In this document: positions 2,164 to 58,143 of the stretch, piece after piece
Layout: the number at the start of each line of letters is the position of its first letter
How positions within the stretch are numbered: the stretch's first letter is position 1
Virus record (IMG/VR): IMGVR_UViG_3300031851_000004
Coordinates: 1-64,000 of that record
Source of the DNA: a virus
Reading direction: 5' to 3' (one strand)
Length of the DNA: 64,000 nt
Program-made: the position numbers and the translations under genes
Notes under the pieces: model-generated
The model's input: only the letters and a program-made list of their open reading frames with translations
What the model was told of the DNA's origin: nothing
The model's database searches: none

Positions 2164-2172
2164 CTGTACTAG

Positions 2173-2178
2173 TTACAC
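2173..2178 (-). promoter_or_regulatory. GTGTAA motif 9 nt upstream of ATG (putative phage promoter)
   Basis: Reverse complement reads GGTGTAActagtacagATG; the motif recurs before four other starts. Confidence 0.5.
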
Positions 2179-2183
2179 CTAAA

Positions 2184-3269: not shown

Positions 3270-3283
3270 TTTATTATATTAAT

Positions 3284-3685: not shown

Positions 3686-3688
3686 GAT

Positions 3689-35670: not shown

Positions 35671-35695
35671 TGTATATATTATATAACACTATACA

Positions 35696-35959
35696 ATGAA
35701 AGATTCATTCAATCCAGAAAGCGAGTTTAAATTCCAAATCCCTAAAGAATTTCTTGATAAATTATATGAATTTACAGGAGGTGCGGAAGGAAACTCTGGT
35801 TTTGTTTTAAGTTATGTAGACGATCAAGGTAAGGCTATGGTATATTGCAGGGCTAGTTCTCAAATAATAGAAATGGGATTAAGAAAAAGTCTTGAAAAGT
35901 ATTTAATACAGATGGAAGAAGGTGAAACTTCTTTAGACATCTCAGAAAACCAAGATTGA
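35696..35959 (+). CDS. hypothetical protein
   Basis: Clean ORF between the nuclease and dnaB. Confidence 0.7.
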   Translation: MKDSFNPESEFKFQIPKEFLDKLYEFTGGAEGNSGFVLSYVDDQGKAMVYCRASSQIIEMGLRKSLEKYLIQMEEGETSLDISENQD

Positions 35960-35961
35960 AC

Positions 35962-35990
35962 TTGACTTTTAAGTTCTTATATGTTAGCAT
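35962..35990 (+). promoter_or_regulatory. sigma70-like promoter of dnaB, probably leaderless
   Basis: TTGACT-N17-TAGCAT with extended TG, then 6 nt to ATG. Confidence 0.6.
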
Positions 35991-35996
35991 TAATGA

Positions 35997-37517
35997 ATGC
36001 GATTATATAATTACGACTTAGAAGCACACTTGCTCAGTGGATTAATACAATTTCCAGATATTTTTTTTGAAATATCTGCATTTGTCTCTGAAAAAGATTT
36101 TTACTCAGAATATAGTAGTGTTAATAAATCTATATTTTTAATAACAAAGTCTTTCATAGAGGAAGGTAAACCTTTGGACGAGGTCTTGATAGCGGAAAAA
36201 ATAAAACTATTGGGAATTAAATTCGAAGAGGGTCTTGACTGCCTTGAATATATACAAGGTCTCGTTATGAGAAAGATCGGTCAAAAATCAATAATACAAA
36301 CGGCAAAAGAGCTAAAACTCCTTACTGTTAGAAGAGGCATTTGTGATGTTGGCAAGGATTTAAATAAATCCATGCAGTCAAGTAATGCCGATTCATATCA
36401 AGAGATAGTAGAAATTGCAGACAAAATTTACCACGACAATATTAATGTTTATGAATCAGGAGAAGGTGCTCCTCAAAACATTTACGAAACAATGGAGGAG
36501 ATAATTGAAGAAAGGGGAGATAACCCAATTGATGACTTTGGTCTTGAAGGGCCTCACCAAAGACTTCATGAGATTTATGGATCCTTACTTAGGCCAGGAA
36601 ATATAACTGTGATTGTCGCTAGATCTGGTATAGGCAAAACTCAATTTTGCATGGATTTCTGCACTAAAGTCTCAGCTATGAATGATCATGTTCCTGTGCT
36701 CCATTTTGATAATGGAGAAATGAGCCTTGAGGAATTAACCATGAGGCAGTGTGCAGCTTTATCTGGAGTTCAATTAAGCTTGCTTGAAACTGGAAGGTGG
36801 AGGCAGGCTGGAGATGAGGTTGTTAATAAAATAAGAAAAGTCTGGAAAACAATAAAATCTATGCAATTTTATTATTATAATTGCGGTGGTTTATCAACAG
36901 AAGAAATGGTGAATGTAATAAAAAGGTTTTACTATTCAAAAGTCGGAAGAGGAAATCAGATGGTTTTTAGTTTTGATTACATAAAAACAACTTTCGAAAA
37001 ACAGTCTAATAAAAACGAATGGCAAATCGTTGGCGAAATGGTAGATAGGTTTAAAAAACTTATATCAAAAGAGATACTGCAAGACAGCAAGCCTTTAATA
37101 TCAATGATAACAAGTGTTCAGATGAATAGGACAGGAACAAGTAGAAATAGAAGCTCAGATAACATAGTAGAGGATGAGACGGTAGTTTCCTTGTCAGATA
37201 GAATAACTCAATTCTGTTCTCACATGTTCTTGTTAAGAGGCAAAGAGCCAGCAGAAATAGCTGAACATAGTAATTTCGGAACACACAAATTGACGAATAT
37301 AAAATCTAGGCATTTAGGGCAAGACCCAATGGGAGAGATTCAACCAGTTCGAATGGCTGATGGTGGCTTAAGAAGGAATTATGTAAATTTTGATTTTAAT
37401 AACTTCAACATAACGGAAAGAGGGGATTTGAGAGATTTGGTTGAGCATTTAAGAGTTGAAGGAATCAGCCCAGAAGAAGATGGAGAAGATTCCTTACCTT
37501 CTTTATTTAACGACTAG
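35997..37517 (+). CDS. dnaB: replicative helicase
   Basis: DnaB N-domain, ARSGIGKT, EMS, FDYIK, QMNR and KSRH motifs. Confidence 0.92.
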   Translation: MRLYNYDLEAHLLSGLIQFPDIFFEISAFVSEKDFYSEYSSVNKSIFLITKSFIEEGKPLDEVLIAEKIKLLGIKFEEGLDCLEYIQGLVMRKIGQKSIIQTAKELKLLTVRRGICDVGKDLNKSMQSSNADSYQEIVEIADKIYHDNINVYESGEGAPQNIYETMEEIIEERGDNPIDDFGLEGPHQRLHEIYGSLLRPGNITVIVARSGIGKTQFCMDFCTKVSAMNDHVPVLHFDNGEMSLEELTMRQCAALSGVQLSLLETGRWRQAGDEVVNKIRKVWKTIKSMQFYYYNCGGLSTEEMVNVIKRFYYSKVGRGNQMVFSFDYIKTTFEKQSNKNEWQIVGEMVDRFKKLISKEILQDSKPLISMITSVQMNRTGTSRNRSSDNIVEDETVVSLSDRITQFCSHMFLLRGKEPAEIAEHSNFGTHKLTNIKSRHLGQDPMGEIQPVRMADGGLRRNYVNFDFNNFNITERGDLRDLVEHLRVEGISPEEDGEDSLPSLFND

Positions 37518-37525
37518 GAATACTC

Positions 37526-38563
37526 ATGCTTGATATTGAAAACACCCTCTTATCTTTGGGGTATAAACTTAACGATAGAGGTCCATACTGGCAGACTAAT
37601 GCGGTATTCAGGCAAGGGGACAATCAAACAGCAATACAAATTTATAAAAATAGCGGGGTTTGGAAAGATTATGTAAATCAAACACCATATATGCCTTTTA
37701 AGAAGCTTATTCAATTAACAGTGGGCACAAATGATGATGATATAGCGTCTGGATATATAAAAGAAATTAATCAATTGGATTTTTCCTCCTACAATCCCCT
37801 AAAAGAAAGAGTTACAATGGAAAAAACATATAATAAAGATTGCTTAAATAGGCTTTTACCCCATTATGATTTTTATGAGAAGCGCGGCATCTCTAGTAAA
37901 ACTTTATCTACCTTTCAAGCAGGGTTATGTACTGAGGGGAAAATGTACCAGAGGTTTGTTTTTCCAATATACAACAAGCAGAATAAAATACATGGTTTTT
38001 CTGGTAGATACATGGGCGTTAGTGAAAACTCGCCTAAATGGAAACACATGGGAATAAAGAGTAAATGGTTATACCCTCATCATATTAGTCAAAAATTCAT
38101 AACAGACTCGAAAGAAGTTATTCTTGTTGAGAGTATAGGGGATGTTTTATCTTTATATGAGAACGATTACAAGAATACGTTATGCTGTTTTGGTGCAGAT
38201 ATATCTCCATCCCTCTGCTCGTACCTTGTTCAATGTAATCCTTCTAAAATTTTCATAAGCTTAAACAATGACAATTCTAAAGATTTCAATGTGGGTCTTT
38301 TTGGTGCTGTAAAAATATTCTTCAAACTCTTTACTATGTTTGATTATGATAAAATTTTTATATGCTTGCCAGACAAAAATGATTTTGGAGATATGTCTAT
38401 GTCCGACTTTGCTTCTTGGGATAAGAAAAGATATAGTATTAAAGGAAGTTCGCATTATAATAACATAGTAAGGCAAGCGGAAAAATTCTGCGAATCTAGA
38501 GATCAACCAGAAAGTTTTATTAAAAAAATTAAAAAATTTAAAAAGGAAATTAATAATGAGTGA
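37526..38563 (+). CDS. dnaG: DNA primase (TOPRIM)
   Basis: RGI, RFVFPI...GFSGR, PKW, LVESIGD and KNDFGD motifs; no CHC2 cysteines. Confidence 0.88.
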   Translation: MLDIENTLLSLGYKLNDRGPYWQTNAVFRQGDNQTAIQIYKNSGVWKDYVNQTPYMPFKKLIQLTVGTNDDDIASGYIKEINQLDFSSYNPLKERVTMEKTYNKDCLNRLLPHYDFYEKRGISSKTLSTFQAGLCTEGKMYQRFVFPIYNKQNKIHGFSGRYMGVSENSPKWKHMGIKSKWLYPHHISQKFITDSKEVILVESIGDVLSLYENDYKNTLCCFGADISPSLCSYLVQCNPSKIFISLNNDNSKDFNVGLFGAVKIFFKLFTMFDYDKIFICLPDKNDFGDMSMSDFASWDKKRYSIKGSSHYNNIVRQAEKFCESRDQPESFIKKIKKFKKEINNE

Positions 38564-39620
38564 TTTATTCTTATCAGCTAGTAAAATAAAAACAGCACAG
38601 GGCTGCTCTTGGAAGTATTGGGCCAATTATGTATTAAAGTTGCCTCAAACTGGGAACGAAGGATCAAGCAGGGGGTGGATTTGCCATTTGATTTTTGAGC
38701 TATTAGGAGAGAAGAAGCACAAAAAACATTATAATGCAATAATAAAATCTGGAAGCATTAATTCGTCTAAAGCTGTTTATAGATTAATCAAGTACCATGC
38801 TAAAAAATTATTGGTTGCTGATGATGAAAACATGGAGTTGATGGATATGATGATACTGAAAGGTCTTTTGTATGATTTTTTTGGTGCAAAGAATAAAAAA
38901 CCGACAAAAGGAATTTCAGAAGAATCTTTTGAGCTTAAAATATCGGAAGGGGGAAAGTCTTATAAGACTAGGGGTTTCATAGATAAGCTTTTTCTTTATG
39001 ATAGAGGCAAGAAGGCTGTAATTAGGGATTTTAAAACCAGTAAGCAATTATTTAAAGGAAAAGAAATAACTGATAACTTGCAAAACTTAATGTATTGCTT
39101 GGCGGTAAGAAAACTTTATCCAAAAGTAAAAGAAATAGAGGTGGAGTTTTTATTTTTAAAATTCAATTTAGAGGAAGACTTGCTAGGAGTCCCAGGTCCT
39201 GGGGTTGTAAAAATGGAAAGAATTTCTGAGCAAGAATTAGAGGGTTTTGAATATCAACTTTCAACAATACAAAATTACTTAGAAAATTTTGACGAAAATG
39301 ATGCAATGGGAGATTATGCAGCTAACCAAGAATACCCTTCCGATAAAACATTCGGAGGGCCTTTGATGTGCGGCAGAGAGGGGTTCAAGAAATCAAAAGG
39401 AGAATATGTGCTTACTGCAGATGGAAGCAAGATTCCTAGTTATATATGCGAACACAGGTTGCCTTTTAAATATTATGCAGTTTTGGACTCGGAAAACGAA
39501 ATATTAAAAACATACAAAACCAAAAGCGATATAAAACTTAAAGAAGGTCAATCTATTGAAGAGAGGGATTACGAAGGCTGCCCCCATTTTAACAAAAGCA
39601 AACAAAGTTTTTTGGTGTAA
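38556..39620 (+). CDS. PD-(D/E)XK exonuclease (RecB/AddB/Cas4-like)
   Basis: LSASKI..C, G.ICH, RGFIDKL, IRDFKTS, Q..MY and C-terminal cysteines. Confidence 0.85.
   Translation: MSDLFLSASKIKTAQGCSWKYWANYVLKLPQTGNEGSSRGWICHLIFELLGEKKHKKHYNAIIKSGSINSSKAVYRLIKYHAKKLLVADDENMELMDMMILKGLLYDFFGAKNKKPTKGISEESFELKISEGGKSYKTRGFIDKLFLYDRGKKAVIRDFKTSKQLFKGKEITDNLQNLMYCLAVRKLYPKVKEIEVEFLFLKFNLEEDLLGVPGPGVVKMERISEQELEGFEYQLSTIQNYLENFDENDAMGDYAANQEYPSDKTFGGPLMCGREGFKKSKGEYVLTADGSKIPSYICEHRLPFKYYAVLDSENEILKTYKTKSDIKLKEGQSIEERDYEGCPHFNKSKQSFLV
39615..39620 (+). promoter_or_regulatory. GTGTAA motif 8 nt upstream of ATG
   Basis: GGTGTAAtttaattcATG. Confidence 0.5.
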
Positions 39621-44077: not shown

Positions 44078-44821
44078 ATGTTACCTTTATTTAAATCTGA
44101 TTTTTCTATAGGGAAAAGTATACTTCGCTTGGATTTAAAATCAATTTCCGAAAAACCAGATTCCAGCATTTTCAATATTTTATCCGAAAACAGTTTATCA
44201 AAACTAGTATTGGTTGAAGACTCCATGATCGGATTTATGGAAGCTTTTAGTAACTGCAAAGAGTTAGGTATTGATTTAATATATGGCATCAAAATAACCG
44301 TGGCAGAAAATTTAGATCCTAAAACATCTCATAAAATTATAATTTTTGCTAAAAACGAATTCGGATGTAAGTCTTTAAGTAAAATTTATACTTATTCTCA
44401 GGTTGATGGTGGAGGTTTTATAGATTATAAAAATTTAAAAAAACTTTGGAGTGATAACCTTTTTTTAGCTATACCGTTTTATGATTCTTTTATATTTAAT
44501 AACATTATGTATTTCAATGAATGTATTCCTGAGTTTTCTTTTGTTGAGCCAACCTTCTTTATAGAGTCGAACAATCTTCCTTTTGATGATTTAATAAAGA
44601 CTCATGTTCTCAATTATTGTGAAGTTAATAAATTTAAAACAAACGATGTTAAAAGTATTTATTATAATAAAAGATCAGATTTTTCCGCCTATCAGACTTA
44701 TAAATGTTTGTGCAACAGAGGTCCATCCACAAGATCGCTTAGCTTGGAAACCCCTAATTTGAACCACTGCTCTAGTGATGAGTTTTGCTTTGAAAGTTAT
44801 TTAGATCATGAAAGCTCTTAA
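44078..44821 (+). CDS. stand-alone PHP domain of DNA polymerase III alpha
   Basis: LPLFKSDFS, GIDLIYG, IIIFAKNEFG...L..I and GFIDY align with the DnaE N-terminus; the metal-binding HxH is lost. Confidence 0.8.
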   Translation: MLPLFKSDFSIGKSILRLDLKSISEKPDSSIFNILSENSLSKLVLVEDSMIGFMEAFSNCKELGIDLIYGIKITVAENLDPKTSHKIIIFAKNEFGCKSLSKIYTYSQVDGGGFIDYKNLKKLWSDNLFLAIPFYDSFIFNNIMYFNECIPEFSFVEPTFFIESNNLPFDDLIKTHVLNYCEVNKFKTNDVKSIYYNKRSDFSAYQTYKCLCNRGPSTRSLSLETPNLNHCSSDEFCFESYLDHESS

Positions 44822-45776
44822 ATACTCAGATATATGCTTAATACCTAATTACAGTGAGGTTCATAGTAGAGCTGACTGCGATACTTCCATAGATTTATTT
44901 GGTAAAAAATATTTACTACCAATTATCCCTGCAAATATGAAATCGGTAATAGATATGAACATTTCTAAGTGGATGAGTTCTCATGGTTATTTTTATATTA
45001 TGCATAGATTTGATAGCAACTTGTCGGACGATGTAGCCTTAGCAAATTCTGAAGGCTGGGATACAATATCTTTTAGTGTTGGTGTAAAACTCAAAGATAA
45101 GCTTGAAATAACCAAAATCTCAAAGTGTTCTAATTTAAGAGTTGACTTTATCACTATAGATATAGCTCATGGTTATTGTCAAAGAATGAAAGGGATGATT
45201 AATCACATAAAAAAACATTTACCTAAGACAAGAATTATTGCTGGTAATGTGGCTAGCTCATGTGCGGTTAAAGAGTTGGCTAATTGGGGGGCAGACATAG
45301 TTAAAGTCGGAATAGGTCAGGGCTCTCCATGTACTACTAAAGATAAAACTGGATTTACTATGCCTATGTTTACATGCGTTCAAGAATGCTCTAATGTTAT
45401 ATCAGATAATAGAACATTTGTTCCAATAATTGCTGATGGAGGAATAAAATGCAACGGAGATATAGCAAAGTCTCTAGTTGCTGGAGCTAGGATGGCTATG
45501 GCTGGAGGTTTATTTGCCGCTTGTACAGATAGCCCAGCAGTTACAAGTACTATTAATGATGTCCCTCACAAAGCATACTTTGGTTCTGCGAGTGCAGAAA
45601 ACAAAGGTCACAGTAATAATATAGAAGGAAGATTAACAAACATTACTTGCAATAGCATGACTATAGGCGAAAAGTTTGGCGAAATAACTCAAGACTTACA
45701 AAGTTCCATAAGTTATGCTGGTGGAAGCTCTTTGAAATCATTAAAAGAAGGGGTTAAATACAGAGAAATATTATGA
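44808..45776 (+). CDS. guaC: GMP reductase
   Basis: Y.DI.LIP, PIIPANM, HRF, IDIAHG, AGNV, KVGIG.GSPCTTK.KTGF, IIADGGI and LQSSISYAGG motifs. Confidence 0.93.
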   Translation: MKALKYSDICLIPNYSEVHSRADCDTSIDLFGKKYLLPIIPANMKSVIDMNISKWMSSHGYFYIMHRFDSNLSDDVALANSEGWDTISFSVGVKLKDKLEITKISKCSNLRVDFITIDIAHGYCQRMKGMINHIKKHLPKTRIIAGNVASSCAVKELANWGADIVKVGIGQGSPCTTKDKTGFTMPMFTCVQECSNVISDNRTFVPIIADGGIKCNGDIAKSLVAGARMAMAGGLFAACTDSPAVTSTINDVPHKAYFGSASAENKGHSNNIEGRLTNITCNSMTIGEKFGEITQDLQSSISYAGGSSLKSLKEGVKYREIL

Positions 45777-45946
45777 ATAAGCAAAAAGTATCACAAATAA
45801 AAAAGATAATTAACTACGACCCTTCTATAAAAGAACATAAAAGGATGCTAAGAAGACTTAAAAAAGAATATCAAAAACTTCCTAAAGGAAGCAAGGTTAA
45901 TTTAATAGAAGACTTAAAGAAAACTTTTAAAACAGAAGATGAATGA
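45773..45946 (+). CDS. 57-aa basic ORF (absent from ORF track)
   Basis: MNKQKVSQIKKIINYDPSIKEHKRMLRRLKKEYQK...; ATGA overlap with guaC and overlap with the next start. Confidence 0.65.
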   Translation: MNKQKVSQIKKIINYDPSIKEHKRMLRRLKKEYQKLPKGSKVNLIEDLKKTFKTEDE

Positions 45947-46580
45947 AGAATTATTAAGATTTAAAAAGAATCAAAAGTATTTAATATTTGATTATGAAAC
46001 ATGTAATTTGAACCTTAATCATTACAGTAATAAGCCTTGGCAGTTAGGGTTCATTATTGCAAAGGGCAGTAAGGTAATAAACAAGTATGATTTCTACTTA
46101 AGTTGGGATGATTTAAAAATGTCTAAAGAAGCAGAAAGAATAACTCAATTTTCTAAATCCAAATACGACAAACTAAAGCAAGACTCAAAAAAATGTTTAA
46201 ATGAATTTGAAAAATATTTATATGATGAAGAGTATTTAATTGTAGGCCACAATATTCTTGGGTTTGATGTTTATATGCATAACATACATAGAGCGTTGCT
46301 TGGGTTAAAATCAGACTACTCTTATATAAATAGAATTTTAGATACTAATTGTTTGGCTAGAGGCATAAAAAATGATATTGCTTTCTCTAAAAACGACAGT
46401 ATAATAAGCTATCAATACAAACTTCATCACTTGAGAACTAGAGGTATAAAAACTAATTTAAAACAACTTTGCAAAGATTACTCGTTAGAGTTTGATGATA
46501 AAAAACTTCACGAAGCTCTTTATGATGTTGAAAAAACTTTTGAAGTATTGAATAAGATATTATGGCAGCTAGAGATTTAA
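45939..46580 (+). CDS. DEDDh 3'-5' exonuclease (DnaQ/epsilon-like)
   Basis: FDYET, GHN..GFD, LDT and HEALYD motifs. Confidence 0.9.
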   Translation: MNEELLRFKKNQKYLIFDYETCNLNLNHYSNKPWQLGFIIAKGSKVINKYDFYLSWDDLKMSKEAERITQFSKSKYDKLKQDSKKCLNEFEKYLYDEEYLIVGHNILGFDVYMHNIHRALLGLKSDYSYINRILDTNCLARGIKNDIAFSKNDSIISYQYKLHHLRTRGIKTNLKQLCKDYSLEFDDKKLHEALYDVEKTFEVLNKILWQLEI

Positions 46581-49129
46581 ACAATAAATTTTACGAAAAC
46601 TTCTCTTCGTATGAAGGTTGTATTCCTCCAGGAGTTAGATTGCCAGAAATCATAATAGATGATAAGTACTATAATGATTTAAAAATAAAACCTAAATCAA
46701 TATCCAACTTCAATTTTTTAAAAAAAATATGTACAGAAGGTTTTAAGTTAAAAAATATAGATGAAAATAATAATATTTATTTAAATAGGCTAAACTCAGA
46801 GCTTAATACGTTAAAATCTCTTGGTTTTATAGATTACATCTTACTCAACTGGGATATAATAAATTATTGTCATATTGAGGGTATTCCAACAGGCCCTGGA
46901 AGGGGCTCCGCAGCAGGCTCTCTAGTTTTATTCTTAATAGGTGTAACAAAAGTAGACCCAATTAAGTATGAACTTTTCTTTGAAAGGTTTGTCTCAAAAA
47001 GCAGGGCAAAAAAGACAGAAAAAGATGGAATTGTTTATTTGGATGGAAGCTTGCTGGCTGATATAGATAATGACATTGCTTATGAGCATAGGCAAAAAGT
47101 TATTGAATATATAGAAAAAAAATACCCATCAAGAACTGCTAAAATTTTAACACTTAATACTCTTAGCGGAAAGCTTTGCGTTAAAGAATGCGGGAAAATT
47201 GCTGGGCAAATGTCTGAACAAGAGGTTAATGTAATTAGCGACATGATCCCTAAAGAGTATGGAGTAGTAATGAAGCTAGGTAAAGCGATTAACGAAAGTG
47301 AAAAATTTAAAGAATTCTCTCAGAAAAATGAAGCAATATACGATATTTGTTTAAAGATAGAAGGTTTAAAGAAAAACGTGGGAGTGCATCCTTCTGGAAT
47401 AGCTATATCCTATGATAAGATTTCGGAAATATGTCCGTTACAAAAAACGAATGATGGCTCCCTCGTTAGCGGTTATGACATGAATTGGGTCTCTGAGTTA
47501 ATGGTGAAGTTTGATATATTAGGCTTACGTACTTTATCCGCAATTCATCACACTTGCCGATCTATAAACATAGAACCTGGCGATATAGACTTATCTTCCG
47601 ATAAAATATTTGCTCACTTATCTAAGTTAGAAAATCCTCATGGATTGTTTCAGATAGAAGCTAGTGCAAACTATATGGTTTGTAAAAAAATAAAACCAAG
47701 GAGCTTGGAAGAGCTTAGCGCTGTAATTGCTATAGCGAGACCAGGAGCTATGGATTTTGTTGACCATTACCAGAGATATGTAGAGACTGGTAACTCACAA
47801 AGTATTCATCCCTTCTTTGATGATGTTCTGGGCTATACAGGAGGAATACCTCTATACCAAGAGCAGTTGATGAAAATGGCTGTAAAAGTCGGCTTCAGTC
47901 TGGAAGAGTCAGAAGAATTGAGGCGTATAGTTGGAAAGAAAAAGGTAGATCAAATGCCTAAATGGAAGAAAAAGATAGATAAAAAAGTAAAAGAAAAAAA
48001 TCTTGATCAATCTGTGTCTGATATTTTATGGAAGGTAGCTGAAGATAGTGCTAACTATTCATTTAATAAAAGCCACTCAATATCTTATTCTTTTTTGGCG
48101 GCTTGGACTTGTTATTTAAAATTTAATTTCCCACAAGAGTTCTTTTTAAGCTTACTTAGGATGACTAAATACGAACCCAGTCCTCAAGAAGAGATAAGTA
48201 AAATAAGCCAAGAGTTATCCTTCTTTGGGATAGAGTTGCTTCCTCCAGATCTAGCTTTATCGGACATGGACTTCTCTAAAGAGGGAAAAAACATTAGGTT
48301 TGGGCTGAATAGTATAAAAGGCATAAGTGAGAAATCTTTATCTTATTTGAAAGACTTTAGATCATCAAATCAACCTAATAAATATGAAACTTTTATGTCG
48401 GCAAAAGATTCTGGTTTAAATATAGGAGTTCTTTCTGCGTTGATACAAGCAGGAGCTTTGTCTTCTTTTAAAACCAATAGACCTAGGTTAGTTCTTGAAG
48501 CACAGGTTTTTAACCTTTTAACCGACAGAGAAAAAAGAAATTTCACTTCGATTGGCGATGAGTATAGTTTTGATATATTAAGCTCTATTGATGTTGCCGT
48601 AAAAAATCAAAAGGTAGGTGATGACGGCAAACCTATAATTAAACCTTCAAGATTTGAGACTTTGAAGAAAAAATACCAGTCTTACAAAAAAATATATGAG
48701 CAAAATAAAAAATATGAAGACTTTGCTAATTGGTATTTTGAAAAATCTTTACTTGGATTTAGTTATAGTAATGAGTTAAGAAACTGTTTTGGTAATAATA
48801 AAAATTTAAAAAATTCGCTAGATGTTTACTCGGCAAGCAAGGGTGATAAGATAAAATGTATAGCTGTTGTTGAAGATTCCTTTTCTAGAAAAAGTAAAAA
48901 TGGAAATGATTACTTAAAACTAACATTAAGTGATGAATTCGGGAGGTATGATGCTATATTGGTTGACGGTAGGTTTAAAAATTTTACTAAATTTAAAAAT
49001 AAATCTAAGATGCCAGAAAAAACAAGTATAGTTATATTTTTAGGCTCAAAAGGAGAAGATATTATCTTCTTAGAAGAACTTTCTATTGTCGATGAAAAAA
49101 TTTATATGAAACTGTCCGATTTAAGATAA
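46562..49129 (+). CDS. dnaE: DNA polymerase III alpha, catalytic part without PHP
   Basis: GPGRGSAAGS, FERF, DIDND, HPSG, KFDILGL, YQEQ, YSFNKSH, IRFGL.SIKG motifs and a C-terminal OB fold. Confidence 0.95.
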   Translation: MAARDLNNKFYENFSSYEGCIPPGVRLPEIIIDDKYYNDLKIKPKSISNFNFLKKICTEGFKLKNIDENNNIYLNRLNSELNTLKSLGFIDYILLNWDIINYCHIEGIPTGPGRGSAAGSLVLFLIGVTKVDPIKYELFFERFVSKSRAKKTEKDGIVYLDGSLLADIDNDIAYEHRQKVIEYIEKKYPSRTAKILTLNTLSGKLCVKECGKIAGQMSEQEVNVISDMIPKEYGVVMKLGKAINESEKFKEFSQKNEAIYDICLKIEGLKKNVGVHPSGIAISYDKISEICPLQKTNDGSLVSGYDMNWVSELMVKFDILGLRTLSAIHHTCRSINIEPGDIDLSSDKIFAHLSKLENPHGLFQIEASANYMVCKKIKPRSLEELSAVIAIARPGAMDFVDHYQRYVETGNSQSIHPFFDDVLGYTGGIPLYQEQLMKMAVKVGFSLEESEELRRIVGKKKVDQMPKWKKKIDKKVKEKNLDQSVSDILWKVAEDSANYSFNKSHSISYSFLAAWTCYLKFNFPQEFFLSLLRMTKYEPSPQEEISKISQELSFFGIELLPPDLALSDMDFSKEGKNIRFGLNSIKGISEKSLSYLKDFRSSNQPNKYETFMSAKDSGLNIGVLSALIQAGALSSFKTNRPRLVLEAQVFNLLTDREKRNFTSIGDEYSFDILSSIDVAVKNQKVGDDGKPIIKPSRFETLKKKYQSYKKIYEQNKKYEDFANWYFEKSLLGFSYSNELRNCFGNNKNLKNSLDVYSASKGDKIKCIAVVEDSFSRKSKNGNDYLKLTLSDEFGRYDAILVDGRFKNFTKFKNKSKMPEKTSIVIFLGSKGEDIIFLEELSIVDEKIYMKLSDLR

Positions 49130-51541
49130 ATGAATAAATTCAACTTAACCCCTAGGGTTCAAAAAATAATCAACCTGTCCAGAGAAACTTCTCTGAATTT
49201 AAACTCAACAAATATTTGTTTAAACCATCTCCTTCATTCTATTTTGGATACGGATCAATCAACTATACTTAACTTTTTTCAAGATTTAAATATACCACTA
49301 GAAGATTTTAAAATTTTTGTATACAACGAAATTGATAATGATTTCGAAGACACCGCTGCTGCAGATAAAAAACCTTCTGTTTTTTGTTCTGACTTTAAGG
49401 AGGTTTTTACTTCAGCTAAGGATTTCTCTGAAGAGTTAGATCACAACTATATAGGGGTTGAACATTTATTTTATGTCCTACTTACCTTTGATGCTTCTCC
49501 TCTACCTGGCTTCTTAAAAACTTTTGATGTTGACCTAAAGAAAGCGATTAAAAAGTTGAGGAATTTTTTCTCCACTGGGGAGTGGAAACAGAACAGGATT
49601 CCTAAAAACTTCGAATCCACCCCTCAAACAAAAGACCCATCCAGTTCAACAAATTTAGAACTTTATGCTAAAAATTATAATATATTAGCACAACAAGGTG
49701 CTTTTGATAAAGTAATAAGTAAGGAACAAGAGATAGAAAAAATATCTGAAATATTATGCAGAAGAAATAAAAATAATCCCATATTAGTAGGACCTCCAGG
49801 TACTGGAAAAACTTCTCTTGTAGAGGGGCTTGCTCAATCAATAGTAAATGGAAGTTGTACTAATTTTTTGGGAAATAAAACCATTTACGAAATTGATCTT
49901 GCTGGAATAATAGCTGGGACAAAATATCGTGGTCAATTTGAAGAAAGAATAAAAGGTATTATCCAAGAGGTCGAATCAAACCAGAATATTATTTTATTTA
50001 TAGATGAAATACATACAATAATAGGTGCTGGTGCTGCTGAAGGAAGTATGGATGCTGCAAATATACTTAAACCAGCTTTAGCTAGAAGCAGAATAAAGTG
50101 CATTGGAGCTACCACCCCTAAAGAATACAAAAAATTTACTACAAAAGACTCTGCCTTAGAAAGAAGGTTTGAAAGAATAGAGATAAACCAGCCATCACAG
50201 ACTCAAACATACAAAATTATTAATGGAATCATCGAGCAATATGAAAAATTCCATCATGTTTCTTATAGAAAAAATTCTATAAAATTAGCTGTTGATATGT
50301 CGGTCAGATATATACCAGATAGACAGCTCCCAGATAAAGCTATAGATATAATAGATCAAGCGGGAGCAAAAGTTAAAATGAAAAACTTCACAAAACCTCA
50401 GTCGGCAAAAGATCTAGAGGAACAAATAGAGTTGTTGATGCTGGAGGAGGATAATGCAGAAAGTACTGATAATAAATTTGCAATGAAGCAGGATAAGTTG
50501 ATAGAGAAATATAAATCTGTTTTAGATAAATGGGCTAGTAAATACGAAAAAACAAGATTCTTTGTTACTAAAGAGGATATCTTTGATGTGATCTCTTCTA
50601 GAACTGGAATCCCCGTAGGAAACTTAACCCAAAAAGACTCTGAAAAACTCATAAATTTAAGCAAATCTTTAAACAAAACAGTCTTCTCTCAGGAAGAAGC
50701 TGTGCTAACAATTTCAGATTGCTTAATTAGATCAAAAAGTGGTCTTTCTGATGAGAATAAACCAATGGGTTCCTTTTTGTTTTTGGGTCGAACAGGTGTA
50801 GGTAAAACATATTTAGCAAAAACAATCGCTAAAGAATATTTTGGGAGCGAAGATAATTTAATACATATAGATATGTCAGAATACTCTGAAAAGATAAACA
50901 TATCAAGGCTCATAGGGTCAGCTCCTGGATACGTTGGTTACGATGATGGAGGGCAACTTACAGACAAGATAAAATTAAAACCTTACTCAGTTTTATTATT
51001 TGATGAGGTTGAAAAAGCTCACCCTGAAGTTTTAAATATATTGCTTCAGTTGCTTGAAGAAGGTAGGTTGACTGACAACTTCGGAAGGCTATCTGATTTT
51101 AGTAATTGTATAGTTATAATGACTGGAAATATTGGAGCCCTCAACTTATCAAAAGGGGGGTCCTTCGGCTTCAACCAGACCTCAAGCTCAGATGGAATAA
51201 GGTTAAAAATTAGAGAAGAGGCTGAAAAAACATTAACACCAGAGCTTATAAACCGACTAGATGAAATTGTAGTTTTTAATGATTTCGACAAAGATCAATT
51301 AAAGAATGTTTTAAAATTAAAAGTAAAAGCCTTGCAATTAAAACTAAAACAGAGTAAGATAGAATTGATTGTATCGGAAGAGGCTATGGATTACATGACA
51401 GACCTTGCTCTTAAAGAAGAATTAGGAGCCAGACCAGTAAAAAGAATATTGCAAAAAAAAGTTGAAAACATAGCATCTAGATGGATTATAATCAATAAAA
51501 CTGGCACATTAAAAATAAACAAAGAAGATATAAATGACTGA
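49130..51541 (+). CDS. clpC: ClpC/ClpA-type AAA+ unfoldase
   Basis: Clp_N repeats, GPPGTGKT, FIDEIH, LPDKAID, short M-domain, GRTGVGKT, APGYVGY, LFDEVEKAH and a ClpP-docking-like SFGF loop. Confidence 0.88.
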   Translation: MNKFNLTPRVQKIINLSRETSLNLNSTNICLNHLLHSILDTDQSTILNFFQDLNIPLEDFKIFVYNEIDNDFEDTAAADKKPSVFCSDFKEVFTSAKDFSEELDHNYIGVEHLFYVLLTFDASPLPGFLKTFDVDLKKAIKKLRNFFSTGEWKQNRIPKNFESTPQTKDPSSSTNLELYAKNYNILAQQGAFDKVISKEQEIEKISEILCRRNKNNPILVGPPGTGKTSLVEGLAQSIVNGSCTNFLGNKTIYEIDLAGIIAGTKYRGQFEERIKGIIQEVESNQNIILFIDEIHTIIGAGAAEGSMDAANILKPALARSRIKCIGATTPKEYKKFTTKDSALERRFERIEINQPSQTQTYKIINGIIEQYEKFHHVSYRKNSIKLAVDMSVRYIPDRQLPDKAIDIIDQAGAKVKMKNFTKPQSAKDLEEQIELLMLEEDNAESTDNKFAMKQDKLIEKYKSVLDKWASKYEKTRFFVTKEDIFDVISSRTGIPVGNLTQKDSEKLINLSKSLNKTVFSQEEAVLTISDCLIRSKSGLSDENKPMGSFLFLGRTGVGKTYLAKTIAKEYFGSEDNLIHIDMSEYSEKINISRLIGSAPGYVGYDDGGQLTDKIKLKPYSVLLFDEVEKAHPEVLNILLQLLEEGRLTDNFGRLSDFSNCIVIMTGNIGALNLSKGGSFGFNQTSSSDGIRLKIREEAEKTLTPELINRLDEIVVFNDFDKDQLKNVLKLKVKALQLKLKQSKIELIVSEEAMDYMTDLALKEELGARPVKRILQKKVENIASRWIIINKTGTLKINKEDIND

Positions 51542-52066: not shown

Positions 52067-52690
52067 ATGTCACTACAAATATATAAACCTAATAGTAAAA
52101 ATACTGGATCAGCTTTCACTTTCCAAAAATCAACAGACAAAAAAAGCGGTGCTCCTGTTTTTTACATCAGCGCAATATCTCAATTTTCATGGGATGATTC
52201 AAAAAAGACAGGGTCTTTTTCGGGAAATGCAAAAAACCCGCAAAAAACTATTAATGTAAAAATTAGTGAAACTGAAGCTGGCTCTTTTGTTAGTGCCTTC
52301 AATTCTAGATATGAGTATACTGCTTTTCATTCCTTTGATGGCAACAGTACGACAATAAAATTTACTCCATGGGATAAATCTACAAAAGTTTCTAAATACA
52401 ACCCTTCCTCAAAGACGTATGAAGAGGATTTTATTAATGTTCCAGCTTTTGGAATTACCCTCTCAAAAGGAAAAGGCAACTCTATTAAAATTGCTCTGGA
52501 TCCTGGAGAAGTGGAGGTCGTAAAAAACCTTTTTGAAATTTTCATAAAGAGTTCTTTGGAGAATAAAATACAGGAAGCCGCTAATAGTTATGCGGCCTCT
52601 AGGCTCAACCCGCCAGAAGCTAAAAGCAAAAAGGAAAAAACTCCCGAAGCTTCCGAAGCTTCCGAAGAATTTGAAGATGTACCGTTCTAA
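52067..52690 (+). CDS. Whirly/PC4-fold ssDNA-binding protein with an SSB-type acidic tail
   Basis: IYK, KISETEAG, AFH, IKFTP and IALDPGEV match the recalled Whirly pattern; ends EEFEDVPF. Confidence 0.65.
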   Translation: MSLQIYKPNSKNTGSAFTFQKSTDKKSGAPVFYISAISQFSWDDSKKTGSFSGNAKNPQKTINVKISETEAGSFVSAFNSRYEYTAFHSFDGNSTTIKFTPWDKSTKVSKYNPSSKTYEEDFINVPAFGITLSKGKGNSIKIALDPGEVEVVKNLFEIFIKSSLENKIQEAANSYAASRLNPPEAKSKKEKTPEASEASEEFEDVPF

Positions 52691-54600
52691 TGGGAAAAAA
52701 GAAAGTTTTATACCATAGTAATTTTTCTAAAATTTTAAGCGGTTTTGGGAAAAATGCAAAAAATATATTAAAATATCTTCAGTCAACTGGTAAGTATGAT
52801 TTAATTGAAGTTAGTAATGGTGTGTCTGAAAACCATAAAGACTTAAAAAAATTACCATGGAAAGCTATAGGTGGAGTCCCTGAAGATCAAAGTCTTGTAG
52901 ACAAAATAAATAAAGATCCTAATTTAGCTCGTAGTGCCCAGTATGGTTTTCTTAATATTGATAAAATAGTAAAAGAAGAAAAGCCAGATGTTTATTTGGG
53001 TGTTGAAGATATATGGGGCATATCTCCTTTGACTAAAAAACCTTGGTGGAATAAGATAAACTGTATGGCTTGGACTACTTTAGATAGTTTGCCGATACTT
53101 GCTGACGCAGTAAAATCCGCTCCTAAAATAAAAAATTATTACGTCTGGGCTAGTTTTGCGGAAAAATCTATGAAAAAAGATCATGGACTCGATCACATAA
53201 AAACTCTGCATGGAGCTGTCGATACTAAAAACTTTTCCAACCTAGGCGATGAAGCAAAAAGCTCGTTAAGATCAAAGTTTAATATTGACCCTGAATCATT
53301 CATTATAGGTTTTGTTTTTAGAAATCAACTAAGAAAAAGTGTTCCAAATTTAATTGAAGGTTTTAAGCTTTTTAAAAAAGAGTTTCCTCAAAGCAAAGCC
53401 AAACTACTTCTTCATACTAATTTTTCAGAAGGTTGGAGTATACCGTCGTTAGTAGAAGAGAAGGGTATTGACCCGTCAGACATTCTTTGTACGTACTATT
53501 GCCCTAAGTGCAAGAATTATGAAGTTAAACCCTTTTCTGGTCAAAATCTTACATGCCCATTCTGTAAATCTGAAAAATCTCAAAACACAGTTTCTATAAC
53601 TGCAGGAGTAAATGAGACTCAGTTAAATGAAGTGTATAATTTAATGGATGTTTATTGTCATCCGTTTACATCTGGAGGTCAAGAGATTCCAATTCAAGAA
53701 GCAAAACTTTGCGAGCTTATAACTTTAGTTACAAATTACTCTTGTGGCGAAGATTGTTCTACTTCTGAAAGCGGCGGGATGCCCTTAGATTGGTCTGAGT
53801 ATAGAGAGCCAGGAACCCAATTCATAAAGGCTAGCACATATGCTTCTAGCATTTCCAAAAACCTTAAAAAAGTTTTTAAAATGGATTTGCTTAAAAGAAG
53901 CTCTATAGGTAAAAAAGCTAGAGATTTCGTAATAAATAATTATTCAATCGAAGTTATTGGTAAGAAGCTAGAAGACATAATAGATGCCTTCCCACAAGTT
54001 GATTATGATTTCAAATTTGAGCAAGAAAAAAGGAATGAAAATTACAATCCGCCAGAGATAAAAGATGACTCTTCATGGCTTATTGATATATATAAAGGTG
54101 TCCTTAAGGTGGATCTGGACCACAACGATGAAGGGCATAAACATTGGATGTCTTCAATTAAGAATGGTGCAAAAAGATTGGATATTTTAAATCATTTTAA
54201 ATCGGTAGCTGTTGGTGAAAATTCTAAAATTGATTCTAGCAAATCTTCTGCTCCAGTTGATTTTAGTGCGATCCTAAAAACTTCAAACAAGAAAAAAGCT
54301 TTGTTTTGCATAAACTCTGACCCAGAAGACGTCCTACTAGTGACTTCTTTGCTGGGTGATTTTAATAAAAAAAACCCAGACTTTGATATCTTTTTCGCAA
54401 CAGATCCTAAGTTCTTTCAAATGGTCTCAACAAATCCTAATATATTTAAGGTAATCCCTTTTCAACCAGAGATGAACGATGAAAAAATTATGCTTGGTGC
54501 GGGGTTAGAAGATAATTACTTTGATGCTTGTTACAACTTCAACAATGTATTATCTAACTATTTAGCTATAGAAAATAAATCTTTTACTACCTATGAATAA
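52690..54600 (+). CDS. multidomain GT4 glycosyltransferase (Zn ribbon, DUF4214-like segment, GT9 N-half)
   Basis: SGFG, HGAVD, RNQLRK and GGQEIPIQEA motifs; CPKC..CPFC; C-terminal EDVLLVTSLL...NPNIFKVI. Confidence 0.8.
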   Translation: MGKKKVLYHSNFSKILSGFGKNAKNILKYLQSTGKYDLIEVSNGVSENHKDLKKLPWKAIGGVPEDQSLVDKINKDPNLARSAQYGFLNIDKIVKEEKPDVYLGVEDIWGISPLTKKPWWNKINCMAWTTLDSLPILADAVKSAPKIKNYYVWASFAEKSMKKDHGLDHIKTLHGAVDTKNFSNLGDEAKSSLRSKFNIDPESFIIGFVFRNQLRKSVPNLIEGFKLFKKEFPQSKAKLLLHTNFSEGWSIPSLVEEKGIDPSDILCTYYCPKCKNYEVKPFSGQNLTCPFCKSEKSQNTVSITAGVNETQLNEVYNLMDVYCHPFTSGGQEIPIQEAKLCELITLVTNYSCGEDCSTSESGGMPLDWSEYREPGTQFIKASTYASSISKNLKKVFKMDLLKRSSIGKKARDFVINNYSIEVIGKKLEDIIDAFPQVDYDFKFEQEKRNENYNPPEIKDDSSWLIDIYKGVLKVDLDHNDEGHKHWMSSIKNGAKRLDILNHFKSVAVGENSKIDSSKSSAPVDFSAILKTSNKKKALFCINSDPEDVLLVTSLLGDFNKKNPDFDIFFATDPKFFQMVSTNPNIFKVIPFQPEMNDEKIMLGAGLEDNYFDACYNFNNVLSNYLAIENKSFTTYE

Positions 54601-55771
54601 ACTTGAAAGGTTTAGTTTGCACTCAGCTCTTAAAGCTGGAAAACCATTTTTTAATGAGTGTTTTTTTCCCATCACTTATGATAAATATATAACCTTTGAG
54701 GCTTCAGCTTTAACCCCAGCATTAGATTATAAAAATTGGCAGGAAGTTATTGATTTCATGAAGCCTTTCCTAGATAGAGCTGGCATAAAAATTATAAGAT
54801 TAGGTCACGCCAAAAGCCCAGAAATAACTGGAGTCATTGATCATAGAGGAAAAGGGTTCAATCAAGACGCTTATATTATTAGCAAATCTTCGTTGCACTT
54901 AGGTTCAGAAAGGACTCTCTCTCTAACCGCTTATCATTTCAACGTGAAACAAGTCTGCCTTTTTTCCTCTTTTGAATCTAAACTTTATCCATTTAAGAAA
55001 AATAAATCTGATAAATTTATAGACTCAGATAAGAAGGGTAGGTTGCCTAGTTATTCTGAAATGGACACAGGGGAAACTGTAAACAACATATCGCCTTGTG
55101 TAATAGCCGAAAGAACTCTAAGTTCTCTTAAAATAAAAAATGACTTAGGAGAATTAAACCATATTTTCGCAGGAAAACTTTGTAATACAAAAACCATAGA
55201 GTTGGTTCCTGATTTCTCTCCAGATCCTAATTTTCTAAAAGGATCTTTGGTTAATTTGCGAGCTGATTTAGCCTTTGATGAGCAAAACATTTTTCAGTTT
55301 TCGCAGGGCAGGAGGCTGGGAATAATAACAGACAAAACCCTTTCAGTAGAACTTCTTAATGCCATAAAAGGCTCCGTTTCTAGAGTGTCGATAAATGCAG
55401 ATGCTGGAATAGAAGAAAGTTTTATAAAAAATCTTAATGATTTGAATATAGCTTACGAAATTTTTGTAAGTAAAAAGGATATACTCTCTGAAATTAGGCT
55501 AAAATTTATAGATGAGATTATCGAGTACTATCCTAAGACAACTAAAAAAGACGTTGATTTTTCTATTGATTCGAGTTACTCTAATTTAATCAATTCATCC
55601 AAAATATTAATATCTAAGGGAAAAAACTATGCAAGTAAAGCTCACTGGATTACAGGTAAAGAAATTAAACCTGGCTTGCAAGAGTTTATAGATACTTCTG
55701 ATTTTTGGGAAGACATTGATTTTATGAATATATACTCAATAAAACAAAATAATGGAAGTAAAAATAAGTAA
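54593..55771 (+). CDS. GT9 (heptosyltransferase-like) C-half fused to an unknown domain
   Basis: DYKNWQEVI...IIRLG...DHRG...AYIISKSSLHLG...VCLFS. Confidence 0.6.
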   Translation: MNKLERFSLHSALKAGKPFFNECFFPITYDKYITFEASALTPALDYKNWQEVIDFMKPFLDRAGIKIIRLGHAKSPEITGVIDHRGKGFNQDAYIISKSSLHLGSERTLSLTAYHFNVKQVCLFSSFESKLYPFKKNKSDKFIDSDKKGRLPSYSEMDTGETVNNISPCVIAERTLSSLKIKNDLGELNHIFAGKLCNTKTIELVPDFSPDPNFLKGSLVNLRADLAFDEQNIFQFSQGRRLGIITDKTLSVELLNAIKGSVSRVSINADAGIEESFIKNLNDLNIAYEIFVSKKDILSEIRLKFIDEIIEYYPKTTKKDVDFSIDSSYSNLINSSKILISKGKNYASKAHWITGKEIKPGLQEFIDTSDFWEDIDFMNIYSIKQNNGSKNK

Positions 55772-56570
55772 AGATATTGAAGCTTCAATGAAAGAAGCTG
55801 TCGTAAAAATAAAAAGAAAAGTTAAGGGTTCTGGAGTTGGTCCAGATTTATACAAAAGAGACGAAAACGGCTTATTAGAAAATGTAGATTACATTTTTAA
55901 TGATGACGGATCTGTTGATTGGAGGTCAATGATAAAAGATGAACACCTTTTCCCTAACAAAGGTTGGTTTGAGTCTAGAAAAAAATCAGTACCAAGATCG
56001 GTTGAGGGTTTAAAAGATTATCAATTGTTGATAAAATTAAGTGGAATAAAAGAGTTGGCTAGGTTAAGGGGTTTTGAAAGCGTTAGTTATTATTCTGACA
56101 AATGTGAACTCAATCATGTCGCTGTTTGTTGTACCATGACCTTTATAGGTAATTACGAAACAGGTGGCGGATCTATTGTTTTTCAAGACATGGCTAATGC
56201 AACTCTAGAAAACACAAGCAGTTTTGCTACAAAATTCCTAGAGACAATCGCTTGCAATAGAGCATTCGTTAGATGCGTTAGAAATTTTCTTAATATACAT
56301 ATTGTTGGAGATGACGAGATAGATAAATCAGATTCGCTTCAGCCTGTGAAATTTGGATCAGAGTCTTTGTCGCCGCAGGGCATACTCAAAAACGAAGCCG
56401 CTTTGTCTGGTATTTCTAATTTTGAATCTTTCATAAATACATTAAGAGGTTGGCATCGTGATGAGGTTTTTAAGGTTCCTTCTTCGATTGATCCTTCGTC
56501 TTGGTCTGGTTATACCGACATACCGCCAAAGTATGCTAGAGAATTTTTAAAAATTTTAAAAAATAATTAA
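55752..56570 (+). CDS. probable single-strand annealing protein (Rad52/Sak/RecT-like)
   Basis: GIKELA..G...ANA....LETIACNRAFVRCVRNFLNI..VGDDEI resembles the MAxxRAxxRAL..EE SSAP core. Confidence 0.55.
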   Translation: MEVKISKDIEASMKEAVVKIKRKVKGSGVGPDLYKRDENGLLENVDYIFNDDGSVDWRSMIKDEHLFPNKGWFESRKKSVPRSVEGLKDYQLLIKLSGIKELARLRGFESVSYYSDKCELNHVAVCCTMTFIGNYETGGGSIVFQDMANATLENTSSFATKFLETIACNRAFVRCVRNFLNIHIVGDDEIDKSDSLQPVKFGSESLSPQGILKNEAALSGISNFESFINTLRGWHRDEVFKVPSSIDPSSWSGYTDIPPKYAREFLKILKNN

Positions 56571-56573
56571 TAC

Positions 56574-57137
56574 ATGTCTAATAATAAGTGTGGAAAAGGT
56601 TTTAATTTGTTAAAAAAAACCAAGACCTACTTAGTAGGTCACATGCAATACAAAAGCGGTAGGGATTGGAGGTCTGAAGTAACTAAAAGCCTTAACCCTA
56701 TAGGAGTTACTTGCTTTGATCCGTATAAAAAACCATTTGTAAAAGACGTTGAAGAAGATGAAGATTCGAGGCGAGAGATGGAAATATGGATGGATACAAA
56801 ACAATACGACAGGGTTTCTGATAAAATGAAAACCGTGAGATCTTATGATCTTAACTTAGTTGACAGATCTGATTTTATAATAGCTCATTTGGTTCCAGAA
56901 GTGGCTTCGTGGGGTTCCGCAGAAGAAATAGTGACTGCGGTTAAGATGAAAAAACCTATTTTCATAAGCATGGAGGGTGGAAAATCAAAAACACCTCTTT
57001 GGATGCTTGGAATGCTACCGCATAAGTATATCTATAACAGCATAGATGAAATTGTAAAAATGCTTTTCGCTATAAATGAAGGTAGTAAGCCTATTGATTC
57101 TGACCGTTGGAGGTTATTGAGGGCAGAGTATAGATAG
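56574..57137 (+). CDS. nucleoside 2-deoxyribosyltransferase / dNMP N-glycosidase-like protein
   Basis: YLVGHM, WR, FDP, D..VDRSD and SWGSAEE..KP motifs. Confidence 0.75.
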   Translation: MSNNKCGKGFNLLKKTKTYLVGHMQYKSGRDWRSEVTKSLNPIGVTCFDPYKKPFVKDVEEDEDSRREMEIWMDTKQYDRVSDKMKTVRSYDLNLVDRSDFIIAHLVPEVASWGSAEEIVTAVKMKKPIFISMEGGKSKTPLWMLGMLPHKYIYNSIDEIVKMLFAINEGSKPIDSDRWRLLRAEYR

Positions 57138-57722: not shown

Positions 57723-58143
57723 GGGGGTGTTCTGGATTCGACTAAAGTTAGATTCTTGCACCGCAAGTCGGAGACGCACTTGGCTCCGCAAAAAAGTGCA
57801 ACTTGTACATGGCAAGACTAAAAATCGTGTTAGAGCTTTAAGTTTCAAGAGCCGCATCGCTTCCAAGCGTGTTGGTTTTAGAAGCCGCAAGCTCGCCTTA
57901 GCAGCTTAATCTGCTAACCTCTTACCTTTTGACGCAGATATTAAGGATAAGGGGTCATCAATCTGCAAAAACAGAAAAAGTTTACCTGTTAATAAACTGT
58001 AGTCCGCTGAGTATTCGGAGGCAAATAATTGTAATAGGAAGTTGGATGTTAATATCACAACTTTAAAAAAAATTAACTAAACTTGTAGACGTGTCTGATT
58101 GAAGGCTATTAGGACGCGGGTTCAAATCCCGCCACCTCCACCA
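57723..58143 (+). ncRNA. ssrA: tmRNA (421 nt); tag frame 57811-57909
   Basis: 5' GGGGGTGTTCTGGATTCGAC; T arm GCGGG-TTCAAAT-CCCGC; acceptor CACCTCC-ACCA with a G3.U alanyl determinant; pk1 CGGAG/CTCCG plus GCACTT/AAGTGC; tag ends LALAA with its stop in the loop of TAGCAG/CTGCTA. Confidence 0.97.

Follow-up and report, generated by a model that had tools for sequence, protein, structure and literature searches.

A phage Whirly-family protein with a tail of the single-stranded DNA-binding protein type

We analysed a 64,000-nucleotide stretch of viral DNA, positions 1 to 64,000 of the IMG/VR record IMGVR_UViG_3300031851_000004 (hereafter the window), and describe here a gene located at 52067-52690 on its + strand that encodes a 207-residue protein, P0001. 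We propose, with a probability of about 0.6, that P0001 is a phage Whirly-family protein with a tail of the type that ends single-stranded DNA-binding proteins (SSBs), and that it is a putative second hub for the binding of single-stranded DNA (ssDNA) beside the OB-fold SSB of the same phage. We regard as established the gene and its conservation, the fold, the remote homology to Whirly, the conservation of the tail and the gene context. The source record is a 99-kb virus, estimated to be 73% complete, with 33% G+C, and near-identical DNA is present in marine or seawater metagenomes of many separate studies.

The gene and its Whirly-type domain

An earlier note on this DNA, made from the sequence without database searches, had pointed to the open reading frame (ORF) at 52067-52690 and to its likeness to the Whirly proteins of plants. 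The ORF is a real and conserved gene, whose product has the C-terminus SEASEEFEDVPF, the last eight residues being EEFEDVPF. The start codon is supported by the relatives, among which the N-terminus MS[IL]x[IL]YKPN is nearly invariant. The gene starts 5 nt past the stop of the upstream gene, and its TAA stop codon overlaps the ATG of the following gene by one base; it therefore belongs to a tightly packed, co-oriented operon. The parts of the gene are as follows, pLDDT being the predicted local distance difference test score of the structural model.

52067-52690, + strand: whole Whirly-family gene (P0001, 207 residues, stop codon included), conserved in 80 + 14 IMG/VR loci
52067-52306, + strand: Whirly repeat 1, residues 1-80, a beta-sheet and helix 68-80 (from the model and the conservation among relatives)
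52316-52606, + strand: Whirly repeat 2, residues 84-180, a beta-sheet and long helix 146-180 (from the model and the profile alignment)
52607-52663, + strand: linker, residues 181-199, of low complexity and predicted to be disordered (pLDDT 68 falling to 47)
52664-52687, + strand: acidic C-terminal tip EEFEDVPF, residues 200-207, of the SSB C-terminal (SSB-Ct) type (from the sequence and the tails of relatives)

An AlphaFold2 model of P0001 built from 49 relatives reached a pLDDT of 89 and a predicted TM score of 0.77. It places strands at residues 2-66, a helix at 68-80, strands at 84-144 and the long helix at 146-180, followed by a disordered tail in which the pLDDT is below 50 at residues 192-200. 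The two beta4-alpha repeats and the linker that the note had deduced from the sequence thus have the same layout in the model, which predicts two tandem beta4-alpha repeats of the Whirly or type I PC4-like fold. In a Foldseek search of the PDB, the top 14 matches were all plant Whirly chains (E about 1e-4, all at or below 0.001, probability 1.0), and the MRP1/2 proteins and then Pur-alpha came after them. VIA-align, an independent structure aligner run over 48,161 chains, gave the same order: StWhy2 was found at Z 15.5 (root-mean-square deviation 3.1 over 135 residues), PBF-2 at Z 15.2 and MRP1/2 at Z 14.5 over 131 residues, while the next fold, Pur-alpha, reached just Z 7.6. A fold unlike Whirly or PC4 had been named in advance as the outcome that would overturn the reading, which survived the check by AlphaFold2, Foldseek and VIA-align. 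The OB-fold SSB family PF00436 gave no match to P0001, whose predicted fold is that of Whirly. Among the neighbours in BFVD are jumbo-phage proteins such as Q2Z149 of phage EL (E 1.4e-3, with a TM score of just 0.26-0.29), and at least one uncultured-phage protein in BFVD/UniProt is already labelled 'Whirly transcription factor'.

P0001 itself matched nothing in Pfam or PHROGs, and PHROGs gave nothing consistent on 84 relatives. Ten of these 84 relatives matched the Pfam Whirly family PF08536 individually (best E 6.7e-6), and the relative P0243 scored 20.7 bits against a cut-off of 23. Two profiles were compared with the sequences of the PDB. The profile of close relatives (A1) found no Whirly protein there, and the broader profile of the 84 diverse relatives (A2) was needed: it matched WHY2 (E 8.2e-5), PBF-2 p24 (E 4.8e-4), StWhy2 (E 7e-4), WHY1 (E 0.045) and WHY3 (E 0.11). 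Its six best matches were all Whirly proteins, nothing else fell below E 1, and the next match stood at E 1.8. Homology is therefore supported at the profile level, by the A2 profile and by the ten relatives, though P0001 alone fails PF08536. The kinship with Whirly proposed in the note is thus detectable as a remote sequence homology, and on this sequence and model evidence we read the P0001 family as a diverged phage lineage of the Whirly family. The neighbouring clusters in the ESM Atlas are viral, and in two of them 13-17% of the members have PF08536.

The note had also aligned six pairs of motifs with plant Whirly. Four of the six were reproduced in the HMMER alignment of the family profile with PBF-2 p24, WHY2 and StWhy2 (ETEAG/TEIG, FH/FFH, GF.LS/FFNLSV and GE.E.V/AEFAV). 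A fifth, TIKFTP/VLKVEP, lies within the aligned range but is weakly conserved there, and the N-terminal IYK pair lies outside the alignment and is covered solely by the structural superposition, which starts at residue 1 of the model. Repeat 2 is the portion that aligns to Whirly at the sequence level; its conserved residues are F87, H88, F128 and G147-E148, and those of repeat 1 are Y6, K7, G14, W42, F51, K60, K65 and E70.

The family is large. A word-indexed search returned 198 relatives of similar length and an exhaustive HMMER search 396 clusters at 50% identity, none of which has a Pfam domain on record. Scans of viral contigs for the most distant members, P0273 and P0145, came back empty. 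A tblastn search of P0001, P0139, P0218 and P0243 against 50,697 GenBank phage records gave no match, and a scan of prokaryotes (one genome per species) gave seven matches, all of them contigs of metagenome-assembled genomes (MAGs) from seven unrelated phyla. We read these seven as mis-binned phage DNA and hence take no host from them. The empty GenBank phages and this reading of the MAG matches leave a family known solely from uncultured viruses in the collections searched. The Pfam Whirly model, run on 401 sampled genomes of the phylum to which the Cellvibrionales MAG G005 belongs, gave one marginal, half-length match of 23.8 bits. The gene is single-copy in each of four genomes checked; no longer, fused form of the protein was found in the search, which is weak evidence. 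A search from P0243 towards canonical Whirly proteins returned just three relatives and no plant sequences. Finally, one 226-nt contig of a metatranscriptomic RNA-Seq run (X19) is identical to 52166-52391, within the gene; this hints at its expression, but DNA carry-over is possible in such libraries and transcription is thus not demonstrated.

The tail and the replication module

In P0001, the region of pLDDT below 50 is followed by an acidic tip that ends in proline and an aromatic residue, EEFEDVPF. The domain has a net charge of +6 and the last 12 residues one of -5. The SSB-like tail that the note had recognised turned out to be conserved across the family: 104 of 207 full-length relatives end in [DE]xP[FWY] and another 21 in proline and another hydrophobic residue (125/207 in total), and most of the remainder have an acidic tail with a terminal W or F. 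The linker varies in length and in sequence among relatives. Such an ending, acidic residues and then proline and an aromatic residue, is confined in the window to the Whirly ORF and the OB-fold SSB, out of 70 ORFs of at least 100 residues. The OB-fold SSBs of the related phages uniformly end in E[ED][MIV]PF; the Whirly tail is thus conserved, less strictly than a true SSB tip, and its docking role is putative.

A monophyletic clade (L016, L029-L031, L033, L055, L056 and L083) lacks the tail. Its protein has 177-180 residues and stops at the end of the last helix; both glycosyltransferase-like (GT-like) genes that follow the Whirly gene in the window are missing, and the gene for a 272-residue protein lies directly downstream. 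The loss of the tail and the absence of the GT-like genes in this clade are a single evolutionary event, and the clade is a natural control for the function of the tail. The 636- and 392-residue GT-like proteins were considered as partners of the tail and rejected, since the co-loss is one event and L025 and L084, which have no tail, keep the GT genes. The Whirly tail showed no covariation with the 272-residue protein's C-terminal domain.

The note had cited a canonical SSB at 3284, placed the Whirly protein beside it as a second one, and set both in a phage replisome. The SSB is real (3284-3685 on the - strand, PF00436, E 1.4e-17, ending ELEDIPW); there is one OB-fold SSB in the window, as in three of three complete relatives (163-194 kb), and the Whirly gene indeed lies in a replication module. 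The genes concerned are listed below.

3284-3685, - strand: OB-fold SSB (PF00436), ending ELEDIPW
34177-35259, + strand: RecA-like gene, first of the upstream part of the module (within 34177-39620)
35997-37517, + strand: DnaB helicase, same upstream part
37526-38563, + strand: DnaG-like primase, same upstream part
38556-39620, + strand: PD-(D/E)XK nuclease, same upstream part
45939-46580, + strand: RNase_T/DnaQ-type 3'-5' exonuclease, same module
46562-49129, + strand: DnaE-type DNA polymerase III alpha, in deep-branching relatives the immediate upstream neighbour of the Whirly gene
52690-55771, + strand: two GT-like genes after the Whirly gene, of 636 residues (phrog_2170) and 392 residues (GT9-like, 1psw, E 2.9e-5)
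55752-56570, + strand: 272-residue protein, the most constant neighbour (79/80 loci), directly adjoining the Whirly gene where the GT genes are missing

The order DnaB, primase, PD-(D/E)XK nuclease, PHP, DnaQ-like exonuclease, DnaE and Whirly is found in the clade of the window and in the deep branches, and from DnaB to Whirly it is kept even in a branch that is just 31% identical. In L099 and L100 the genes of the upstream part, in the same order, adjoin DnaE and Whirly in an unbroken run; in the window, DnaE and Whirly are separated by a ClpC-like gene and orf175. About half of the related phages carry a block with the SSB gene 2.4 kb upstream of the Whirly gene and on its strand, and the order in this derived clade is sigma-like, OB-fold SSB, GT-like, a gene for a 126-residue protein and Whirly, all on one strand. 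A RecA-like gene was present in four of four genomes checked. Because a RecA-like gene and an OB-fold SSB co-occur with it, the Whirly protein supplements a complete set of replication and recombination genes and does not stand in for the SSB. Downstream, the 80 IMG/VR loci hold the 636-residue gene in 73 cases, the 392-residue gene in 72 and the 272-residue gene in 79.

The 272-residue protein is highly conserved (59% mean column identity) and has invariant Cys and His residues. Its model (pLDDT 75) shows a helix-beta-beta-beta-helix core that weakly resembles RAD52/Mgm101 and a helical C-terminal domain, about residues 205-272, that is modelled with confidence. The best Foldseek match was RAD52 (E 0.022); by VIA-align, RAD52 gave Z 6.5 with the longest alignment (120 residues), which is within background. 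In the ESM Atlas the protein leans weakly toward Sak/Rad52 clusters (similarity 0.89), and the Pfam Rad52 family gave no match to it. The Whirly protein and the 272-residue protein may form a pair of an SSB-like protein and an annealase, which is a lead and not a finding.

Several further observations concern these neighbours. In the window, the block of the dNMP kinase, sigma-like, OB-fold SSB, GT-like and 126-residue genes occupies 1783-5336 on the - strand, 48 kb away from the Whirly gene and inverted; a glycan cluster and virion-like genes lie in between, and in many relatives the block is directly upstream. The ClpC/ClpB-like gene (49130-51541), a two-ring AAA+ ATPase, is found between DnaE and the Whirly gene in the clade of the window alone. 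The DnaE gene (46562-49129) begins at the polymerase core, without a PHP domain, and a separate gene for a 247-residue PHP-domain protein (44078-44821) lies 1.7 kb upstream of it, separated from it by a gene of the GMP-reductase/IMPDH family (44808-45776) and the DnaQ-like exonuclease. In one relative (L102:4143-7948) the DnaE match falls into two pieces about 1.26 kb apart, as if an intein, an intron or a homing endonuclease had been inserted. Three GT-like genes belong to the conserved core surroundings of the Whirly and OB-fold SSB genes and stand outside the big glycan cluster: the 636-residue one with a CxxC...CxxC insert, the GT9-like one of 392 residues, and one of 361 residues beside the OB-fold SSB (2184-3269, - strand). 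They might, along with an NDT-like gene at 56574-57137 and the dNMP kinase at 4258-4800, have DNA or nucleotides as substrates. A phage transfer-messenger RNA at 57723-58143 was confirmed by Rfam (RF00023, 133 bits, full length).

Proposed role and rival readings

From these results we infer ssDNA binding, an oligomeric state, docking and a role along the following lines. The protein would bind ssDNA on the beta-sheet face of its Whirly domain, probably as a tetramer like other Whirly and MRP proteins, through the conserved aromatic and basic residues Y6, K7, W42, F51, K60, K65, H88 and F128. The net positive charge of the domain (+6) and the location of conserved aromatic and basic residues on strands lend the binding indirect support. 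In Whirly proteins the C-terminal helices hold the homotetramer, or 'whirligig', together, and the P0001 model has a long C-terminal helix at 146-180. The acidic tip may compete with DNA for this basic face by folding back on it, and its release when DNA is bound would let it dock into the SSB-tail pockets of partner enzymes of the phage or the host. The gene would be expressed with those of the RecA-like protein, DnaB, the primase, the PD-(D/E)XK nuclease, the DnaQ-like exonuclease and DnaE, and its product would act alongside the OB-fold SSB without replacing it. Its likely role is that of a specialised ssDNA hub or a recombination accessory, as plant Whirlies are for the organellar RecA. 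Strand exchange by the organellar RecA is stimulated by Whirlies (bioRxiv 10.64898/2026.10.24.761589).

Several observations weigh against this proposal. As to the family, P0001 gave no match to PF08536 at E up to 10 and so stays below the gathering score of 23 bits. The KGKAAL motif of the plants is not present as such: P0001 reads IYKPNSKNTGSAF there, that is, YKPNSKNTG.A, and the family-conserved residues of this region are just Y6, K7, G14 and A16. In StWhy2, the KGKAAL motif lies in the first strand and is needed for higher-order assembly. As to the tail, its endings are more variable than the tips of the OB-fold SSBs (D[AV]PF, DPPF, AEELVF, EDCPI, EPFDx, EYDF); in the clades ending in EPFDx the PF is not terminal, and the tail-less clade keeps its Whirly gene in the same place. 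As to function, the immediate downstream genes are GT-like and not classical parts of a replisome, and the Whirly-fold proteins ChmC and MRP1/2 can prefer RNA.

Three other roles were weighed. The protein could be an ssDNA-binding transcription factor or co-activator that binds melted promoter DNA and aids a phage sigma factor or RNA polymerase at middle or late genes, its acidic tail contacting the polymerase; PBF-2/Whirly1, PC4, the N4 SSB and Drc of the N4-like phages would be its parallels. Whirly and PC4 were originally described as transcription factors (PMC7549692), and in about half of the related phages the Whirly gene is co-oriented with the OB-fold SSB gene and with a sigma-like regulator, the homologue of the window gene at 3689-4261 (phrog_36). 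In the deep-branching arrangement, however, DnaE immediately precedes the Whirly gene and there is no sigma gene in the vicinity; tips of the SSB-Ct type, to which this one belongs, are known to recruit enzymes of replication and repair, and a sequence-specific DNA-binding element was not identified. We consider a role in transcription unlikely. A role on RNA, in the manner of ChmC, MRP1/2 or maize Whirly1, appears less likely still: the protein would bind phage mRNAs or guide RNA-RNA annealing, with its acidic, disordered tail serving to drive condensates or to bind partners. What speaks for it is that MRP1/2 are nearly level with plant Whirly in the structure search (Z 14.5), that ChmC, a tetramer of the Whirly fold whose C-terminal region is disordered, prefers RNA (10.1101/2023.09.22.559000), and that jumbo-phage proteins, of phage EL for example, are among the BFVD neighbours. 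Against this, the matches at the sequence level are to the ssDNA-binding Whirlies of plants alone and not to MRP, the surrounding genes are those of DNA replication and recombination, and no role on RNA is known for the SSB motif that the tip copies.

The close resemblance of the tip to the end of bacterial SSBs also allows it to be seen as a mimic of the host SSB tail, a decoy that soaks up or redirects host SSB-interacting enzymes and for which nucleic-acid binding is secondary. Since an OB-fold SSB is already encoded, the Whirly protein is not needed as the sole SSB. An alternative form of this idea is a second SSB-like protein that escapes defence systems sensing phage OB-fold SSBs; phage SSB is reported to be a trigger of several defence systems. 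The strongest conservation, however, lies in the Whirly domain and not in the tail, and a whole clade dropped the tail and retained the domain; we give a decoy in either form very little credence. We retain a phage Whirly-family protein with an SSB-type tail, acting as a putative second ssDNA-binding hub, as our reading of P0001.

Origin and comparison with known systems

In the plant literature, Whirlies are ssDNA-binding proteins specific to plants, with an origin in the Chloroplastida ancestor (PMC11135702; bioRxiv 10.64898/2026.10.24.761589). The note had likewise described them as plant organellar ssDNA binders, which is incomplete: the Whirly fold is already known in phages from ChmC (10.1101/2023.09.22.559000), and at least one uncultured-phage protein bears the Whirly label in UniProt. 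We found in the papers searched no description of a phage Whirly-family protein with an SSB-type tip. The note had raised a possible phage link to the origin of Whirly. It is conceivable, if doubtful, that plant Whirlies descend from the phage family or share a phage ancestor with it, and that the phage protein is a non-OB SSB plugged into the SSB interactome by a convergently acquired or ancestral SSB-Ct docking tip. The phage family is a plausible source because other parts of plant organelle replication are phage-type, but the similarity is too remote for the direction of transfer to be derived. If the origin were in phages, Whirly would join Twinkle and the phage-type RNA polymerase among the phage-derived parts of organelle DNA maintenance. 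A large, old and diverse phage family with detectable homology offers in any case a concrete outgroup for the question. P0001 would also be a case of the SSB linker-plus-acidic-tip module on a non-OB putative DNA-binding domain; if so, the SSB tail would be a portable docking device and some large marine phages would run two ssDNA hubs in parallel. The protein is readily testable, being small, confidently modelled and accompanied by natural tail-less variants as controls.

P0001 shares the general layout of the bacterial and phage OB-fold SSBs (PF00436), in which a basic DNA-binding domain, putative in P0001, is followed by a disordered linker and then by an acidic tip with proline and an aromatic residue at its end. 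The tip is EEFEDVPF in P0001, ELEDIPW in the SSB of the phage and E[ED][MIV]PF in those of its relatives; that of the E. coli SSB is DDDIPF. P0001 differs from them in that its putative DNA-binding domain is Whirly, unrelated to the OB fold, and in that its tip is more variable across the family. The acidic tail of T7 gp2.5 has an essential terminal Phe that contacts polymerase and helicase. T7 gp2.5 and T4 gp32 are phage SSBs with acidic C-termini, but they are OB folds. The PC4-like protein of phage T5 (4bg7) is an ssDNA binder of the PC4/Whirly superfamily that serves the recombination-dependent replication of the phage (PMC7549692); it is however a single-repeat dimer (type II) and not a two-repeat Whirly chain. 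None of the three joins a Whirly domain to an SSB-Ct tip.

Two other Whirly-fold systems act on RNA. ChmC of the Chimalliviridae (PhiPA3 gp61, phiKZ gp67) is a Whirly-fold protein of phages that forms a homotetramer, has a C-terminal region that is disordered, and binds single-stranded nucleic acid (10.1101/2023.09.22.559000). Its repeats, however, are of the beta3-alpha type; it has a preference for RNA, gives rise to condensates and works on mRNA at the phage nucleus, whereas the P0001 gene belongs to a replication module, in a phage that is not known to build a nucleus. No sequence link between ChmC and P0001 was found, though no direct sequence search against ChmC was made. Trypanosoma MRP1/MRP2 (2gia, 2gje) are a near-equal structural match and form tetramers that anneal nucleic-acid strands; they differ in being RNA matchmakers of mitochondrial RNA editing, in having no sequence match to the family profile and in having no SSB-type tip.

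The closest known proteins are the organellar Whirlies of plants (StWhy1, which is PBF-2 p24, StWhy2 and AtWHY1/2/3; PF08536; 1l3a, 3n1h, 4koo, 4kop, 4koq). They have the same two-repeat beta4-alpha fold, and the profile-level match to them is collinear over the end of repeat 1 and repeat 2. As with P0001, the replication system to which they belong is phage-like and includes RecA-type recombinases and OB-fold SSBs. Plant Whirlies are not known to have a disordered linker and an SSB-type tip. P0001 differs from the plant proteins in that it lies below the Pfam threshold, lacks KGKAAL as such and has no transit peptide, and instead carries a disordered linker and an acidic tip of the bacterial SSB type and is encoded by an uncultured marine phage.

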